From Candidatus Binataceae bacterium (GTDB taxonomy: Bacteria > Desulfobacterota > Binatia > Binatales > Binataceae), in the NCBI GenBank assembly GCA_052146355.1, contig JBKQNE010000049.1, positions 20,031-84,030 on the forward strand: DNA of 64,000 bases. The letters are read 5' to 3'. Below are positions 5,478 to 17,188 of the stretch, piece after piece. Both the position numbers and the translations under genes were made by a program. The notes under the pieces were generated by a model. It was not told the origin of the DNA, ran no database searches, and saw nothing but the letters and a program-made list of their open reading frames with translations. Numbering within the stretch: position 1 is the stretch's first letter; every line of letters begins with the position of its first letter.

Positions 5478-6998
5478 TCAGCGGCCGCCGCCGGCTGAGG
5501 TCGGCGCGGATTCCGGCGGACGCGCCGTGCGGTTCGGCGGATGGATGTACAGCAGCGACGCGTCCGGCCGCCCTGTCGTGTGCATCTTGGGCGGGCGCAT
5601 CTCGTATTTCACTGCCTGCGAATGCTCGGCGAACTGGCGCTCGGGGTTGTAGACCTTGTTGAACTTCCAGAGCATCTTGATGAAATTGGTCTGCCCCTTG
5701 AGCATCAGCTTGCCAGCGATCGATGCGACTTCCTTCAGCGCCTGGAAGCCGAGATGCTTCCGATTGAGCACGTCCTGGGTCTTTACCAGCTCCTGGTAAA
5801 ACTTCAGGAGCGGCAGCTTGGTGGGCAGCACCGCATGCTGGATATCGTACAGACGATAGTCCAGCGTGGTCAGCTTGCGCGCCTCGGTAAACCACAGTTC
5901 CGTGCCCGGATAAGGCGTCGCCACGGTGAGATGAACGATTTCGGGAACGCTCATCGCCCATTCGCGAATAACCTCGAACCGGCGCTCATCCCATGAAGGA
6001 TCCGCAATCAGGTTTATCGCTACGGTCAGACCGATTTCGCGTGCGACTTCGAGCGCCTTGATATTGGTGCCGGTGGACGAGCGCTTGCGATGGAGCTTCA
6101 GTCCTTCTTCATCGATCGCTTCCAACCCAAGGAACATGTACTCCAGCCCAAGCCTGCGCCAGTACTGAAACACTTCCTTGTTGCGAATCAGAACGTCGGC
6201 ACGAGTCTCGAGGTAGTACTGTTTCTTGATCTTGCGCTTTTCGAGTTCGTGACCGATCGCGAAGCCGTGCTCCGGATGGATGAACGCGACGTCGTCGACG
6301 ATGAAGACGTTGGGCTCCTTGATCGAAGCCATGTCTTCGGCCGCCGCTTCCGCCGTCGATTTGCGATAGCTGCGTCCGTAAAAGGTCCACGCGCTGCAGA
6401 ACGAGCAATCCCACGGACATCCGCGCGTAAACTCGATCGACGCGCAGGGATCCAGCACGCCGATGAAATATTTGTTGCGCCGCCGCCCCAAATCGCGCGC
6501 GGGAAAATACTTGTCGAGATCGTCGAGCATTACCGGCGTCGGACCGGAGCCCTGCGTGGTGATGACGCCCGGAACCTTGGTGATTGAATCGGTCCCGATC
6601 GCCTCCAGCAACATCTGCGCGCTGCTCTCGCCCTCGCCGCGCACGACGCAATCGACCGCGCCCTCGGCGTGCTCGAGTATTTCGTCGGCGACGAACGAAC
6701 CGCTGTGTCCGCCGACAAAGATGAAGCAATCGCGATCGCGCGCCTTGAGTGCCTTGGCCAGGTCGATCACTTCCGGCACGTTGGCGAGATAGTTCACTGA
6801 GAACCCAACCGCCTGCGGCTTGAAGTCGGCGAACTCCCGGTAGAGTTCACGATGCTGAAAAATCTGGAGGTCGATGATGCGGACGTCGTGCCCCGCCGCG
6901 CGCACGGCTGCCGCGACGCGTTCCATCCCCAGCGGTTCCAGCCGTAGATAGATCTCGCTGTACATCAAGGGGCTAGGATGAACGAACAGAACCCGCAT
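5478..6998 (-). CDS. B12-binding domain radical SAM protein (class B; possible hopanoid methylase HpnR/HpnP type)
   Basis: N-terminal cobalamin-binding Rossmann-like domain (RVLFVHPSP..., FVGGHSGS) followed by CPWDCSFC (CxxxCxxC). The ATG at 6998 is preceded by GGAGGG. The specific methylase assignment is from memory of family N-termini only. Confidence 0.85.
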   Translation of the reverse strand: MRVLFVHPSPLMYSEIYLRLEPLGMERVAAAVRAAGHDVRIIDLQIFQHRELYREFADFKPQAVGFSVNYLANVPEVIDLAKALKARDRDCFIFVGGHSGSFVADEILEHAEGAVDCVVRGEGESSAQMLLEAIGTDSITKVPGVITTQGSGPTPVMLDDLDKYFPARDLGRRRNKYFIGVLDPCASIEFTRGCPWDCSFCSAWTFYGRSYRKSTAEAAAEDMASIKEPNVFIVDDVAFIHPEHGFAIGHELEKRKIKKQYYLETRADVLIRNKEVFQYWRRLGLEYMFLGLEAIDEEGLKLHRKRSSTGTNIKALEVAREIGLTVAINLIADPSWDERRFEVIREWAMSVPEIVHLTVATPYPGTELWFTEARKLTTLDYRLYDIQHAVLPTKLPLLKFYQELVKTQDVLNRKHLGFQALKEVASIAGKLMLKGQTNFIKMLWKFNKVYNPERQFAEHSQAVKYEMRPPKMHTTGRPDASLLYIHPPNRTARPPESAPTSAGGGR

Positions 6999-7475
6999 CA
7001 ATTTCCCTCCTGCGGACCCATCAGGCGTCGCGGCTGCTCTTTGTCACGAGCAGGATTTGCCCGGACGCCGCGTGCCTGACCAATCGGCCAGTCGGGCGCA
7101 TTGTAGCCCGCAAACGTGGCTTTGGAAATAGTCTCGTAACGCGCCGGCGGGTCTTTTTTGAGACCGCGACTGGAGTCATGCTCTGCACATGGCGACCGTG
7201 CGCAAACCGCACCGGGATTTGACGCTGATCCTGATACTGATCGTCGCCCTGATCGACGGGATCCTGATAGCCATCGTGAGGGTGCGGTCCATACAAGACA
7301 TGGGCCTCGACCTCAACGTACGTCCACCGCATCAGGCGGTGCAGCGGTCCACGCAGCCTTAGGGCCTTGCTCTTGACAAGCTCGGCGCCGCGCCGGAATT
7401 TGAGCGCAGGTCGTTCGTTTTACAACCCATCATCAAGCGCGCGGAGACATCTCAGCTCCGCGTGACGAGGAAACC

Positions 7476-9736: not shown

Positions 9737-10903
9737 CTACTTCTCCTGATTCTGCTGCGCTTCGATTACTGCGCGCATGCGCTCGCCCGCGTCGCGCGCG
9801 ACTTGCTCCTGCTCGGGATTGCTGCCGGTGCCCTCCAGGTCCAGCAAGTCGTAGTAGAGCTTGCCGTTCAGCTTGGCGACTTCGTCGACGAAGGTGGTGC
9901 CGTAGTCGCTCTCCGCGCTCATCGCGAAAGCTTGCCGCGTGTAGTTCCAGCTCTCCGGACGGAGCCGGCGCGCTTCCTTGAAGTAAGGCACCGCATCGGC
10001 GGTGTGGCCTTGCTCGCACAGATACTCGGCGAGCCTGAAGTTCGCATTCGCCAGCATGTGATCGCGGCTGGGAACTTTGAGCTTCCCCGTCACCTGATCG
10101 GGCGCGAGGGCGAATCGGCTCTCCGCCCCGCTTCGCACCCAATCGCGGAGTGCATCGAGGTACGGCGTCGAAGCGACGCCGGTGATTCCGCGGAACATGT
10201 CGGTTGAAAATGCGACCTCGTTGGGGCGCACGACCATCCCGCGCTCGTCGATCCACGTCCCGGTCGGGACGTTCACCATATTGTAGAGTTCAGCGACGAC
10301 GTGCCGTTTATCGATAAGCGAAGGATGAGTCGGGTTTGCGGCGCGAATGAATTCACCCGCAGCCGCTGCGCCGCCACTGTCGAATGCAACCGTGATGACT
10401 GTGAAATCATGATCCTTGAGTTCTTCGTAAAGAGCCTGCCAGCCTGGCAGGTCAAAGCGGCAACCTCACCAGGAAGCCCACGAGACCAGCAGGACTTTCT
10501 TGCCCAGATGGTCGGAAAGCCGATGCGTCCGGCCCTCCAGGTCAGGCAGTTCGAAGTCCGGCGCTTTCAAGGTCCTGAGAGCGGCACCGCGCGCCACGGA
10601 ATCCTCGCCGAAGTACCACACGCGATGTTTCACATCGCCCGCCCATGGGATGCCGATGTGATCGGCGAATGCCGTGAAATTCAGATACGTCGAGCCGTTG
10701 CGGGTCGAAACGAAATCCGCATCGCGGCCCGATGGGATCGGAAAGCAGAGTTCGCCCCGGCACAGGCCCTGCGGTTTCAGTTCCCATCCGGTTCGCCGCG
10801 CCAACTCACCTGCTTCGAGCCACAGCGCGCGGCCCTCTTCGACCGCGCCGTCGAAGCGATGCTCTTTTTCATCAATAATGACGATCGCTGAATTCTGCGC
10901 CAT
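9737..10903 (-). CDS. TlpA/ResA-like thioredoxin-fold protein with in-frame TGA (candidate selenocysteine) and C-terminal TPR-like domain
   Basis: ORFs 10466..10903 and 9737..10279 are in the same frame. They are joined by 62 stop-free codons after a single TGA at 10466..10468. The fold continues across it: KKVLLVSWASW-TGA-GCRFDLPGWQALYEELKDHDFTVITVAFDS...NVPTGTWIDERGMVV. Confidence 0.65.
10435..10451 (-). promoter_or_regulatory. SECIS-like hairpin downstream of the in-frame UGA
   Basis: mRNA reads UGA GGU UGC CGC UUU GAC CUGCCA GGC UGGCAG G. A perfect 7-bp stem (C-CUGCCA / UGGCAG-G) carries a G-rich apical loop and starts about 13-15 nt after the UGA. Confidence 0.45.
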
Positions 10904-10930
10904 CGGTAGTTGCCCTCCCCGATTGTCTAG

Positions 10931-13492
10931 TCACGCCGCCAGGGTCGCGCCGAGCTTCGCACCTTCGCGTTTGCGGAATGCGATCGCGACTGCGAGGCGC
11001 TCCAGGTGCTGATCGATAATCTTCGCGCCCAGCCGCACGCGATGCGTCTGAAAGAAGTTTTTCACTTCGTCTTCTCGATCCAGCAGCGCGACCACCGCCT
11101 CGCACATCCGCGGCAGCGCGTTGTCCGGGTATTTGCGCGTCATCTCGTCCCAGTTCTTGCGAATGAAATCCCACGCCTGGTAGCGGCTGGCGGTGTTGAG
11201 CAGCAATGAGTGCATCAGGTATGGCGAATTCTGGGTGCGCACCTGCCCATCGAGCGTCATATCCATCGTCGCACGCAACAGGCCTGGATCGCGAAAACTG
11301 GTCAGCGAGAACAGGTAGCGCTGCTCTTCCTGCGGCGTGCGCGCGCCCTTGAACTTGCGCTTGAACTCATCGTAGCGCTTCGCATCGCCGGCATAAGCGA
11401 GAATCGAAACCAGCGCGGGACCGAGGTCGCGGTCCGCCTTGTCAGGATTGTCTTCGAAGCGGGCGTACAGGGTCGCTGCCTGCTTCTGAACTTCCTTGTC
11501 GTCGCCGATGGTTCCAAGTGTCGCGATCAGGATGCCGCGCAACTGGCGATCGAGTTCGCTCTCGCCGGGCTTCGCTTGCCATCCAAGGCGCGCGGCAGCC
11601 GGACCGATAGTCGCGCGCACGGCCGCGGCCAGTGCCGGCCGATCCGAATCCGGCGCGATCATGTCGAGATAGTTGAATGCGCCGATAATCGCGCGCCACA
11701 CGTTGAGATCGGTTTCGCCGGTGAACAGGCGCGCCATCTTCAGGAATTCCGACAGCGGTCCCAGGCCTGCAACGGTCGCCGCCCAGGTGTCGCTGACCAG
11801 GCCGAAGCGCTCGATCGGCCGTAGTTCGGCGAGGTTGCGGGTCAGCGCGGCGAGCAGCTCGGGCGCGTAGTGCACGCGGTAGAAGCCGTGCCCACCTTCG
11901 TTCAGGAACGACCAATCGACCTTGCCCCCAAGGTCGACCGTGGTCTCGCGCTCGGTCATCAGCACCTTCCGGGTGACGATGCCCTTATCGGTGCGGGCGC
12001 GAATCATGACCGGGATGTGCCAGAGCTGGTTCGAATCGTCCTTGAGATAGAAGAAGCGGCGCTGCGAAAGCTTGAGGCCGTTGGCGCTGGCCGCAGCATC
12101 GACGATCGGGAACCCCGGCTGGAAGATCCAGGAATCCATTATCTTGCGGACGGGCTCGCGCGATGCCGCTTCGAGCGCATCCCACAGATCGCTGGTTTCG
12201 GTGTTGTCGAATTGATGCTTCTTCAGGTAGCCGCGGATTCCGTCGCGAAACACTTCGGGCCGCAGGAACTGCTCGAGCATCCGGAGCACGGCCGCGCCCT
12301 TCTCGTAGGTAAGGATGTCGAACATCGCGCGGCATTCTTCGGGACTGTGCACGGTGAACTCGATGGGGCGCGTGCTGCGCAACCCGTCAATCGCCATCGC
12401 GGCAGCGCGCGATACCGAAAAACTCTCCCATCGCTTCCACTCCGGCTTCCACGCATCGACCGCGAGCATTTCCATGAACGTCGCAAATGCTTCGTTGAGC
12501 CAGATGCCGTTCCACCATCGCATCGTCACCAGGTCGCCGAACCACATGTGCGCGTTCTCGTGCGACACGACGTCCGCGACCCGCTCCAGCTCCGCGCGCG
12601 ACGCAGCCTTGTCATCGGCCAGCAGCGCAGTTTCGCGAAACGTGATCGCGCCGAGATTTTCCATCGCGCCGGAAGCGAAATCGGGAATCGCGATCAAATC
12701 CAGCTTGTCGCCGGGATAAGCGAGGCCGTAGTAGCTCGCGAAGTATTTGAGGGAAAACGCTCCGATCTGCTTCGCCCACTCCGTCAGTCCGGCCTTGCCC
12801 GGAACGTGGACGATGCGCAGCGGCGTGCCCGCATCGACCGGGGCGGTCGCATCGAATTCCCCGACGATGAATGCCACCAGGTAGGTGGACATCACGATCG
12901 TTTCCTTGAAGATGACCTCTTTCTTGCCGTTGCCGAGCTTGCGTTCGCTCTCCTGGCCGCCGTTGGAGATCGCGGCGAGGTTCTCATCGACGACGAGCGT
13001 GATTTTGTAACTCGCCTTCAGCTCCGGCTCGTCCCAGCACGGAAATGCGCGGCGCGCATCGGTGGACTCGAATTGCGTGGTGGCAGCGACGTGGTCCTTG
13101 CCGGCCGCATCGGTGTACTGGCTCCTATAGAAGCCGTGCAGCTTGTCGTTGAGAATTCCGCGAAACGTAATTTTGAGCGTATATTCTCCGGGAGCGAGCG
13201 CCTCGGAGAAATTCAGATGCGCGCGTTCCTTGGCCGGCTCCAGCCGCGCGGTCGCCTTGAACGATCGGCCCGAACGCTCGACGCTGGCGGTATCGATCTC
13301 CAGCTCCAGCGCGTTGAGCACTATCTCATCGGTCGGCTCGACGACTGTGATTGCAACGCTCTCCTCACCTTTGAAAACGAAAGCCTTGAGGTCGGGTTCA
13401 AGCCGAAGCTCGTAGCGGCGTGGCTTGACGCTTTTCGGCAGCCGATAGTCCTGGACCTGCTGGCTGGAGGACGCACCTTCCTGATCGCGCAT
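10931..13492 (-). CDS. pepN: M1-family aminopeptidase N
   Basis: 853-aa ORF with the GAMENLG exopeptidase motif and the HENAHMWFGDLVTMRWWNGIWLNEAF zinc motif (HExxH-x18-E). Confidence 0.95.
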   Translation of the reverse strand: MRDQEGASSSQQVQDYRLPKSVKPRRYELRLEPDLKAFVFKGEESVAITVVEPTDEIVLNALELEIDTASVERSGRSFKATARLEPAKERAHLNFSEALAPGEYTLKITFRGILNDKLHGFYRSQYTDAAGKDHVAATTQFESTDARRAFPCWDEPELKASYKITLVVDENLAAISNGGQESERKLGNGKKEVIFKETIVMSTYLVAFIVGEFDATAPVDAGTPLRIVHVPGKAGLTEWAKQIGAFSLKYFASYYGLAYPGDKLDLIAIPDFASGAMENLGAITFRETALLADDKAASRAELERVADVVSHENAHMWFGDLVTMRWWNGIWLNEAFATFMEMLAVDAWKPEWKRWESFSVSRAAAMAIDGLRSTRPIEFTVHSPEECRAMFDILTYEKGAAVLRMLEQFLRPEVFRDGIRGYLKKHQFDNTETSDLWDALEAASREPVRKIMDSWIFQPGFPIVDAAASANGLKLSQRRFFYLKDDSNQLWHIPVMIRARTDKGIVTRKVLMTERETTVDLGGKVDWSFLNEGGHGFYRVHYAPELLAALTRNLAELRPIERFGLVSDTWAATVAGLGPLSEFLKMARLFTGETDLNVWRAIIGAFNYLDMIAPDSDRPALAAAVRATIGPAAARLGWQAKPGESELDRQLRGILIATLGTIGDDKEVQKQAATLYARFEDNPDKADRDLGPALVSILAYAGDAKRYDEFKRKFKGARTPQEEQRYLFSLTSFRDPGLLRATMDMTLDGQVRTQNSPYLMHSLLLNTASRYQAWDFIRKNWDEMTRKYPDNALPRMCEAVVALLDREDEVKNFFQTHRVRLGAKIIDQHLERLAVAIAFRKREGAKLGATLAA

Positions 13493-14767: not shown

Positions 14768-15193
14768 TCGTGGCGCCCCCCCTCAAATCGCTGCGACTAT
14801 CACCTCCCGCCAGGAGTCGCGAATCAAGGGTCGCCGCATACATCCAGGGTCAGGACTCAGCCGAAGAGATCGAGCGGGTACGGTCGGCTTGTAGAGCTTG
14901 AGCCGCAATGTCCCGAGCGGCGGCGCAATGTACTTGGCCTCACCGTGACGGCGTCGGGCAGCGGTGAAGCTGAGGTCGTCGCCAGGCATCGCTAATCCTC
15001 CGCGGTCCGATTCTGCATCAACCCTGCTCGCGTCTACCAGCGGCAGCTTCAGGGATGGGCGTGGCCGTGCTTTGCGCCCAGCCGCGGCTTCAGAGTTGAC
15101 TCGCGGTGGAGGTTATTGGCAACAGGCAAGTCTCGCCGTTAAACTGATGCCGTCCAAGCTCGCCCGCTCCGGTAAGTGCAAAGGGCTATCGCG

Positions 15194-17188
15194 ATGACTC
15201 TTCGGCGCAGACCATACAGGCTCTTCCTTGGTTTCTTGGCGATGCTGCTCTGCGCGGTTTGCGCTTCACCGGCCGGCGCCGCGGCCAGTAGCTTCATCGT
15301 GCGGAACGTCCGGGTGTTCGACGGTGAGAAGATAATTCCCGCAAATAGCGTGGTCGTGGTGGATGGCAAAATTGCCCAGGTCGGCACCAAGCTGAAGGCG
15401 CCCCCCGGCGCCGAGGTCATCGATGGTACCGGTGACACGCTTCTTCCCGGACTGATCGATTCGCACGTCCATTTGTGGACTCGCGACGTTCTGCGCCTGG
15501 GTCTGGCGATGGGCGCCACCACTCAACTCGACATGTATATGCGGTGGAACGAGGCGCAGCTTTGGAAAGAACAGGAATCGAAGGGCGCCGTCGATATCTC
15601 CGATTTCCGGACCGCCGGCACCTGCTTTGCCGTGGCTCGCGGACACGGCACTGAATCTACCATGCCGCCCATAGTTCCTATCTCGATCCCCGGCCAGGCG
15701 CAGGCCTTTGTCAACGAACGGATCCAGCATGGCTCTGACTACATCAAGGTCATGTACGACAACGGTCCTCGGTTTGCGGCGATGTCAAAGGACATCCTGG
15801 ACGCTATCGTCAAGGCGGCACACCAGCGCGGCAAGATAGTGGTGGTTCACGCGTTCTCGCCGCAGGCAATTCTCGACGTGATCAATTCGGGAGCCGATGG
15901 ACTCGCTCATGTGCCGATAGTGAAACTGCCCGAGCCGCAATTCACCGACGCCCTGAAAAGCCATCATATTTTCGCGATTACTACGCTGAGCATCACCGAC
16001 CTTTGGTTTGGAACCCGGCGGTTGCCGACCACCTTGCCACAGGATCCTTTCCTTGCTCCTTACATCGATCCTTTTTTGCGCAGCTCGCTCGAGCAGCCTG
16101 CATTCACTAGTCCCGAACACATCGACTACCGCGACAATCAAGCTGATCTGCGCATACTTCGTGATGCGGGAGTGCCGCTCCTGGCGGGTACCGATGCCTC
16201 GAATACCGAGCCTGCGGGCGCGCTTCTGCATACCGAACTCCAGCTGATGGTCGAAGCGGGGCTTACGCCTTCACAAGCGCTGACCGACGCAACCTCTGTC
16301 CCCGCCGGAATTTTCGGACTGACGGATCGTGGCCGGATTGTGCCGGGGCTGCGCGCCGACTTGTTGCTAGTGCGCGGCAATCCGACCAGCGATATTCGCA
16401 AGACTCGCGAGATCGTCGCGATCTGGAAACAGGGTGTGCGCGTGAATCGCGACACGTTGCGCGACGAGGTCGCGAAAGAGGATACCGCCTGGCGATTTGG
16501 CGCCGGCTGGCTCCCGCTCGCAGCCGATAACGCAAAAGTACGAATCAGTAATGCGGGCGGCGGAACTAATCATGCTCCGCGGAGCTTGATTATCAACGGC
16601 GCAGTAGAGAACGCTCACCCACCTGCAGAGGCGGGAGTGGTCTACCTGCCCAGCCTCGCGTACCCGGGCGCGACCATGGACGTATCAGGCGTCCGTCAAT
16701 TGTCGTTTCGCGCGCGCGGAGACGGAAAGACTTATACCATCACAGTTTCAAGCTATGACGACGCTCCGATCGCGAAGAATTTCGTGGCCGCCAAAGATTG
16801 GACTCTGATCACCTTTCCATTTTCGGACTTCGACAGTAGCGGCAAAGAAGTCCACAGCGTCAGAATCGCCAGCACGACTCCCGGACCATTCAACCTCGAG
16901 TTGGCCGATCCGCAAATCGGAGCCCATCGATGGTTAGGCATCGAGTTCACCGACGATCCCAGCGCGGCGAAGATCAGCGTCGTGGATCCGAATTCACCGG
17001 GACAGAGGGCGGGGTTCAAGCCCGGCGACACAATCACCCGCTTCAACGACGGGGTGGTATTCGGCTCTGACGATCTGTCGATCTTGTTAGATAACACTCA
17101 CGTAGGCGATCGAGTCCCGGTCGAGATTGAGCGTGGCGGCGACACCAAAAAACTCGTGATCGAAGTGGGACAGCACGCGTCTGACTAG
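15194..17188 (+). CDS. secreted amidohydrolase with CIA30-like and C-terminal PDZ domains
   Basis: Signal peptide (LGFLAMLLCAVCASPAGA), metal-binding DSHVHLW, amidohydrolase C-terminal blocks (GTDA, ADLLLV), a beta-sandwich segment, then a PDZ (VVDPNSPGQRAGFKPGDTITRFNDG). Confidence 0.8.
   Translation: MTLRRRPYRLFLGFLAMLLCAVCASPAGAAASSFIVRNVRVFDGEKIIPANSVVVVDGKIAQVGTKLKAPPGAEVIDGTGDTLLPGLIDSHVHLWTRDVLRLGLAMGATTQLDMYMRWNEAQLWKEQESKGAVDISDFRTAGTCFAVARGHGTESTMPPIVPISIPGQAQAFVNERIQHGSDYIKVMYDNGPRFAAMSKDILDAIVKAAHQRGKIVVVHAFSPQAILDVINSGADGLAHVPIVKLPEPQFTDALKSHHIFAITTLSITDLWFGTRRLPTTLPQDPFLAPYIDPFLRSSLEQPAFTSPEHIDYRDNQADLRILRDAGVPLLAGTDASNTEPAGALLHTELQLMVEAGLTPSQALTDATSVPAGIFGLTDRGRIVPGLRADLLLVRGNPTSDIRKTREIVAIWKQGVRVNRDTLRDEVAKEDTAWRFGAGWLPLAADNAKVRISNAGGGTNHAPRSLIINGAVENAHPPAEAGVVYLPSLAYPGATMDVSGVRQLSFRARGDGKTYTITVSSYDDAPIAKNFVAAKDWTLITFPFSDFDSSGKEVHSVRIASTTPGPFNLELADPQIGAHRWLGIEFTDDPSAAKISVVDPNSPGQRAGFKPGDTITRFNDGVVFGSDDLSILLDNTHVGDRVPVEIERGGDTKKLVIEVGQHASD

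Follow-up and report, generated by a model that had tools for sequence, protein, structure and literature searches.

The gene at positions 9737 to 10903, minus strand, in a 64,000-nucleotide stretch of DNA from a Candidatus Binataceae bacterium (contig JBKQNE010000049.1; the whole stretch is hereafter called the window) is a real selenoprotein gene, a new member, from Binatia, of a known, curated and biochemically uncharacterised family, NF041054. Taken as a whole, the data are very probably best explained by a single three-domain protein of this family, in which selenocysteine (Sec) is inserted at an in-frame UGA in a hairpin-dependent manner, and which works as a thiol/selenol-disulfide oxidoreductase. 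The finding is real but not new, because the family had already been curated (NF041054) and published, and it leaves existing knowledge unchanged.

The open reading frame (ORF) at 10466..10903 (minus strand) ends with ...GKKVLLVSWASW, and is followed by a TGA at 10468..10466. Past the TGA, the frame stays open over 62 sense codons (GCRFDLPGWQ...AELYN), and merges into the ORF at 9737..10279, which starts with MVNVPTGTWIDERGMVV. A reading made from the letters alone (the sequence-only reading) had taken the two ORFs as one thioredoxin-fold gene split by TGA, and was right in coordinates and sequence details: 10903..9737 is one frame of 388 codons with one internal stop. The one-residue spacing of the U-G-C motif, noted there as unusual, is also found in the sequence. 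The elements of the gene are the following.

9737..10903, minus strand: complete selenoprotein gene, 388 codons including Sec146; member of NF041054, the frame being open for about 240 codons past the TGA in orthologues.
10466..10468, minus strand: in-frame TGA, read here as selenocysteine, residue 146; TGA in 95 of 95 genomic sites, aligned with the N-terminal Cys of CxxC.
10460..10480, minus strand: active-site motif W142-A-S-W-U146-G-C148; the U column is Cys in full-length homologues, C148 is invariant.
9739..9737, minus strand: stop codon TAG of the selenoprotein gene.
10913..10920, minus strand: Shine-Dalgarno-like GGGGAGGG, seen in the sequence itself, 9 nt ahead of the start codon ATG (10903..10901).

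The TGA was monitored in 13 orthologues from Binatus-like genomes and in the best 80 of at least 597 related loci found in species genomes, the homologous genomic sites totalling 95. TGA resides at this column in all 95 sites, and is therefore not a chance internal stop. The 13 orthologues, all with TGA, are 65-70% identical to the window protein. TGA-bearing loci among the best 80 belong to Acidobacteriota, Methylomirabilota/Rokubacteria, Binatia (paralogues), Dehalococcoidia, Planctomycetes, Alpha- and Gammaproteobacteria, Hydrogenedentota and others, and derive largely from soil- and groundwater-named metagenome-assembled genomes (MAGs) of Acidobacteriota, Binatia, Methylomirabilota and Chloroflexota. 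In 10 of the 13 orthologues identity is 56-60% before the TGA, and 69-73% after it, over about 240 open codons. The remaining three (L010, L012 and L013) carry apparent assembly frameshifts, and two of them show lower identity past the TGA. To judge from these identities, the codons past the TGA are still under purifying selection.

A nonsense mutation or a sequencing error, making the gene a pseudogene or the codon a misread TGC/TGT, could account for a single internal stop that splits a recognisable fold, and for the two fragments reported by gene callers. The same event would have to be found in 95 of 95 sites, in independent assemblies and in several phyla; in addition, the sequence of the window gene is identical in an independent Logan assembly, and the region past the TGA is more conserved than the region before it. 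Practically no credence is left to this explanation. In the annotation of the Logan contig the gene is split into calls of 145 and 180 aa, the kind of fragmentation that the sequence-only reading had foreseen for standard pipelines.

Fragmented calls are frequent in protein sets as well. The best 120 protein clusters matching the family include 55 full-length proteins with Cys at the TGA column (WxSWCxC, mostly WASWCGC), 4 entries with W (WASWWGC), and more than 60 (61) C-terminal fragments of about 217 aa, with CTG, TTG or ATG starts placed directly past the TGA (e.g. P0108 and P0120). Cys occupies the column in many homologues of metagenomic origin. The fragment clusters are mis-called Sec forms, and represent a systematic mis-annotation in public protein sets. 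That callers often start the downstream piece at such codons may be taken to indicate that two separate genes exist, one encoding the N-terminal domain and the first strands of the fold, the other starting at the ATG at 10279 or at an alternative start upstream. Two genes so arranged would cut the thioredoxin fold exactly at the active site. Moreover, the 62 codons from the TGA to the first ATG are conserved as protein, and include the invariant residues C148, D151 and W155; the start codon is not conserved, called starts varying between homologues, and the Cys-form homologues are single polypeptides. The existence of two genes is thus extremely improbable.

A candidate bacterial selenocysteine insertion sequence (SECIS) is found within the coding region, shortly past the UGA.

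10435..10451, minus strand: candidate bacterial SECIS hairpin; 6-bp stem CCUGCC/GGCAGG, loop AGGCU, starting 14 nt past the UGA.

With the UGA counted as nt 1-3, the stem is formed by nt 18-23 (CCUGCC) and nt 29-34 (GGCAGG). In a comparison of 79 distinct sequences, 98.5% of the cells are paired, against 28-67% in slid controls, and none of 500 shuffles reached the observed values. Pair 19-33 is CG in 63 sequences, UA in 14, UG in 2, and never unpaired; pair 18-34 is CG in 56 and UA in 15. Changes at 19-33 occur at synonymous sites, Leu codons CUG/UUG covarying with Gln codons CAG/CAA, and the third position of the stem Leu codon is an invariant G; both features indicate that something other than the protein sequence is also under constraint. 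In all cases the loop is N-G-[G/U]-N-U, the spacing between UGA and loop is 20 nt, the energy -11.1 kcal/mol. A SECIS had been indicated as a check on the selenoprotein proposal, and the hairpin, conserved and covarying, agrees with all four constraints of the published bacterial SECIS (bSECIS) model. At Rfam gathering thresholds the only match in the window is a tRNA-Pro, and a permissive scan of 10380..10500 yielded chance-level matches; no SECIS family was hit at either level.

Several observations weigh against a Sec-encoding gene with a functional SECIS. Folded as a single sequence, the region does not differ significantly from its shuffles in stability (z -1.1 to -1.4), and a competing fold appears at one of the segment lengths folded. 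The stem encodes the conserved residues D-L-P-x-W-Q, and its conservation is partly imposed by the protein. Homologues of E. coli SelA, SelB and SelD are encoded neither in the 64-kb window nor in 94 family loci; the only tRNA gene in the window is for Pro, with no tRNA-Sec; no Binatia genome yielded selB, selC or selD. In the searchable literature, neither experimental work on any family member nor the term WAxxUGC was found. The competing helix, in which the UGA region pairs with the 3' arm of the hairpin, was rejected, as neither excess pairing nor covariation was seen across the 79 sequences.

selA genes were sought with a GC-rich nucleotide pattern encoding the SelA motif GDKLLGGPQ, and 120 loci were identified. 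One MAG, JADBKU01, carries both selA (L103, contig JADBKU010000016.1) and a TGA-containing family member (L077, contig JADBKU010000009.1). Relatives of the L103 SelA, 63-68% identical, are found in Binataceae MAGs; a protein search with the selA of MAG Bu91 retrieved Binataceae selA genes. The Binataceae selA loci (L297-L303) share a conserved context, gyrB-dsbD-ribBA-MFS-selA-dodecin-BON, with no selB, selD or tRNA-Sec within 8 kb; no tRNA-Sec adjoins selA in any of the selA loci checked. None of the retrieved Binataceae selA contigs comes from the same assemblies as the Binatus-like orthologues. The selA of an 'uncultured delta proteobacterium' MAG was discarded as a Binatia gene, its closest relatives being in Desulfobaccales, Desulfobacca and Syntrophobacterales. 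The presence of selA in Binataceae MAGs indicates a Sec pathway at the level of the lineage.

The UGA could also be read as Trp, Gly or Cys without selenocysteine, through an alternative code or a near-cognate tRNA, and four database entries (P0002, P0005, P0010 and P0027) do feature Trp at the codon. These are the W entries mentioned above, which suggest that a gene caller, using an alternative genetic code, rendered TGA as Trp. Among ordinary stops in the window TGA is the most frequent, terminating 21 of 37 long ORFs, the adjacent pepN gene included, which excludes a reassigned code; terminal stops of the orthologues are TGA, TAG or TAA. The homologue column is Cys, rather than Trp or Gly, a covarying SECIS-type hairpin follows the codon, and selA is present in the lineage. 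Readthrough without selenocysteine is accordingly very improbable. A scan of the window for further TGA-split ORFs, based on GC content at third codon positions, was too noisy at 62% GC to show anything.

For the NCBIfam comparison Cys was put in the place of the TGA codon. The protein scores 332.8 bits (E 2.7e-99; cut-off 300) with the NCBIfam equivalog model NF041054.1, 'WAxxUGC_long' ("ResA-like WAxxUGC motif-containing protein"), so that the ResA-like WAxxUGC family mentioned in the sequence-only reading does exist. The profile (354 positions) is matched in two stretches, the best of which pairs protein residues 29-234 with profile positions 8-204; in a full-length alignment with homologues of 345-410 aa invariant residues are found in all three parts, and the long architecture of the family is therefore present. 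Scores with related models are all far below the corresponding cut-offs (ResA 67.7 bits vs. 170, TlpA 48.5 vs. 230, StoA 46.9 vs. 210, DsbE 18.2 vs. 123). The best Pfam match is AhpC-TSA (PF00578; 62.1 bits, gathering threshold 26), a model which also covers TlpA-like proteins; AhpC-TSA/Redoxin matches span residues 113-233.

10199..10582, minus strand: TlpA/ResA-type thioredoxin-fold domain, residues ~108-235; matched in Pfam (AhpC-TSA/Redoxin), PDB and Foldseek searches.

A sequence search of the PDB retrieved TlpA/ResA-type thioredoxin-fold proteins only (3kcm, 4nmu, 1jfu and 1st9; E down to 2e-16). When aligned to these solved structures, the TGA falls on the N-terminal Cys of CxxC, as had been proposed from the letters alone, and a one-residue gap precedes the second Cys; the C-x-x-C active site of TlpA, ResA and CcmG is replaced by U-G-C. 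The cis-Pro region, previously recognized as VPT, corresponds to N211-V212-P213, invariant across homologues. The AlphaFold model of the closest Cys-form homologue (P0001, 50% identical to the window protein; pLDDT 91.7) hits ResA, DsbE and TlpA structures in Foldseek via the central domain only (TMt 0.7-0.8, TMq ~0.3), which indicates that the three-domain architecture has no solved counterpart.

From these data we infer that Sec is inserted at all, by which chemistry and on which substrate the protein acts, and what the flanking domains do. The UGA at 10468..10466 would be recoded as selenocysteine, the hairpin found 14 nt downstream within the gene acting as a bacterial SECIS which recruits SelB carrying Sec-tRNA(Sec). 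Sec146, located at the N-terminus of helix 1 in place of the nucleophilic Cys of CxxC, would most likely attack a substrate disulfide or an oxidised sulfur species, and Cys148, one residue on, may resolve the intermediate as a selenenylsulfide. Attack and resolution together would make the protein a thiol/selenol-disulfide oxidoreductase. Two further roles are guesses: the N-terminal CxxxxC motif may serve as an internal redox partner, and a protein substrate may be bound by the TPR-like helices at the C-terminus.

Selenocysteine is a good peroxidatic residue, and the main functional rival of a TlpA/ResA-type disulfide reductase is a peroxiredoxin-like selenoprotein, in which Sec is peroxidatic. 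AhpC-TSA being the best Pfam match, and the name 'Prx-like (UGC-containing)' given to the family in its first description (PMC2398784), both speak for a peroxidase. The peroxidatic signature PxxxT/SxxC, taken from the PxxxTxxU motif cited in PMC13188914, is absent, residues at -3 and -7 being Ala143 and Val139. The peroxiredoxin score is 20.7 bits, vs. 67.7 and 48.5 for ResA and TlpA, the PDB matches reach the E value given above, and a 2026 review places the family under TlpA disulfide reductases. A peroxidase is thus unlikely, and disulfide reductase/oxidoreductase activity is the preferred reading.

The domains flanking the thioredoxin fold are the following.

10604..10903, minus strand: N-terminal alpha/beta domain of ~100 aa, fold family unassigned; residues 1-105 in an AlphaFold2 (AF2) model.
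10745..10762, minus strand: Cys48-x4-Cys53 motif (KPxGxCxxxxCxP); G46, C48 and C53 invariant in alignments of 30 and 45 sequences.
9740..10186, minus strand: C-terminal all-helical, TPR-like domain, residues ~240-388; weak TPR_2 and TPR_12 matches, helices confident in the homologue model.

An N-terminal extension of about 100 aa had been noticed in the sequence-only reading, and is upheld by the AF2 model of window residues 1-105 (pLDDT 92.8). Compared to the PDB, the model gave no significant fold match (best E 0.38, TM ≤0.43), and on this modelling the region appears to be an undescribed domain. In the same model Cys48 and Cys53 reside in neighbouring strands (E46-49 and E52-54). The C-terminal TPR-like domain, estimated earlier at about 140 aa, holds up with a helical part of about 150 aa; the TPR_2 match (residues 285-317, E 4.7e-4) is below the Pfam cut-off, and weak TPR signals span residues 279-317 overall.

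The window protein starts with MAQNSAIVIIDEKEHRF, in which neither a signal peptide nor a membrane anchor was recognized by eye. The pepN stop, located only 27 nt upstream of the selenoprotein ATG, leaves no room for a longer N-terminus or a signal peptide. As it lacks a signal peptide, the protein probably resides in the cytoplasm of this organism. Sec-type or Tat-type (RRDFL) signal peptides were observed in some family members (among P0001, P0002, P0006-P0008 and P0027), and are missing in the Binatus orthologues; judging from the N-termini, the compartment in which the family acts seems to vary between lineages.

With a single residue between U and C, the selenenylsulfide should be strained and oxidising, as in small CXC peptides. 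The family may accordingly be imagined as a self-contained three-domain redox machine, a new selenium-based protein-disulfide isomerase or oxidase, in which the CxxxxC motif would exchange electrons with U-G-C, and the TPR-like tail would select the substrate. This is a speculative and rather doubtful proposal; were it true, the pairing with pepN in two phyla, described below, would be a hint that both genes serve protein or peptide turnover.

The gene directly upstream of the selenoprotein gene encodes an aminopeptidase.

10931..13492, minus strand: aminopeptidase N (pepN, M1 family), with Pfam Peptidase_M1 domains and an ordinary TGA stop.

In the window, pepN and the selenoprotein gene are in the same reading frame, separated by the pepN TGA and 27 nt, and are possibly co-transcribed. 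pepN is about 80% identical among Binatus-like genomes, and lies directly upstream in the Binatus-like loci for which the upstream flank is available (L001-L008, L010-L013 and L016), as in four Methylomirabilota loci (L033, L037, L047 and L072). The pair is thus conserved across two phyla, without an obvious functional link. Downstream genes encode a glyoxalase-fold protein, a nucleotidyltransferase, an aldo-keto reductase and a B12-radical SAM protein. The B12-binding radical SAM gene (5478..7001, minus strand) is a few kb from the selenoprotein gene, as is, on the other side, an amidohydrolase gene fused to CIA30-like and PDZ domains (15176..17188, plus strand).

A second, TGA-containing paralogue was detected in Binatia MAGs (L039, L041, L042, L044-L046, L052-L054, L057, L060, L062, L063 and L068), downstream of a UvrD-type helicase gene with a PD-(D/E)XK nuclease domain. 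L015 and L046, for example, are the two family copies of one assembly. A Candidatus Angelobacter MAG (L026) carries two tandem copies, with TGA at 1633 and 2927, both followed by the hairpin. No redox partner emerged from the neighbourhood analysis, the only recurrent neighbours being pepN and, beside the paralogue, the UvrD-type helicase-nuclease.

In the annotation, a single selenoprotein coding sequence, with the TGA translated as Sec, should replace the two fragments; public metagenome protein sets commonly contain the same error, in the form of C-terminal fragments or of 'Trp' at the Sec position. Binatia are added to the lineages using the UGC selenoprotein, the family being present in at least 597 species genomes. 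The U-G-C centre, the CxxxxC domain with no solved match and the TPR-like tail make the protein a reasonable target for a first biochemical study.

Among known systems, NF041054 shares with the window gene both the W-A-x-x-U-G-C motif and the long three-part architecture, and no difference was found. The 'Prx-like (UGC-containing)' selenoprotein family, described in the Global Ocean Sampling (GOS) survey with 46 Sec sequences and 855 Cys homologues (Zhang & Gladyshev 2008, PMC2398784), has the same thioredoxin/AhpC-TSA fold, the UGC motif and many Cys homologues, and may correspond either to the three-domain 'long' form or to the UGC thioredoxin domain only. That family is enriched in non-marine samples (PMC2398784), in line with the soil- and groundwater-named MAGs found here. 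ResA, TlpA, CcmG (DsbE) and StoA feature the same thioredoxin-fold subtype, a conserved cis-Pro and the same nucleophile position. In contrast, they use C-x-x-C and are extracytoplasmic, whereas the window protein has U-G-C, lacks signal peptide and membrane anchor, and carries the N-terminal CxxxxC domain and the C-terminal TPR-like domain in addition. In thioredoxin-fold selenoproteins with UxxC, Sec likewise replaces the N-terminal redox Cys, and the SECIS lies inside the coding region past the UGA; the window protein differs from these in having a one-residue spacer (UGC) rather than two, and three domains.

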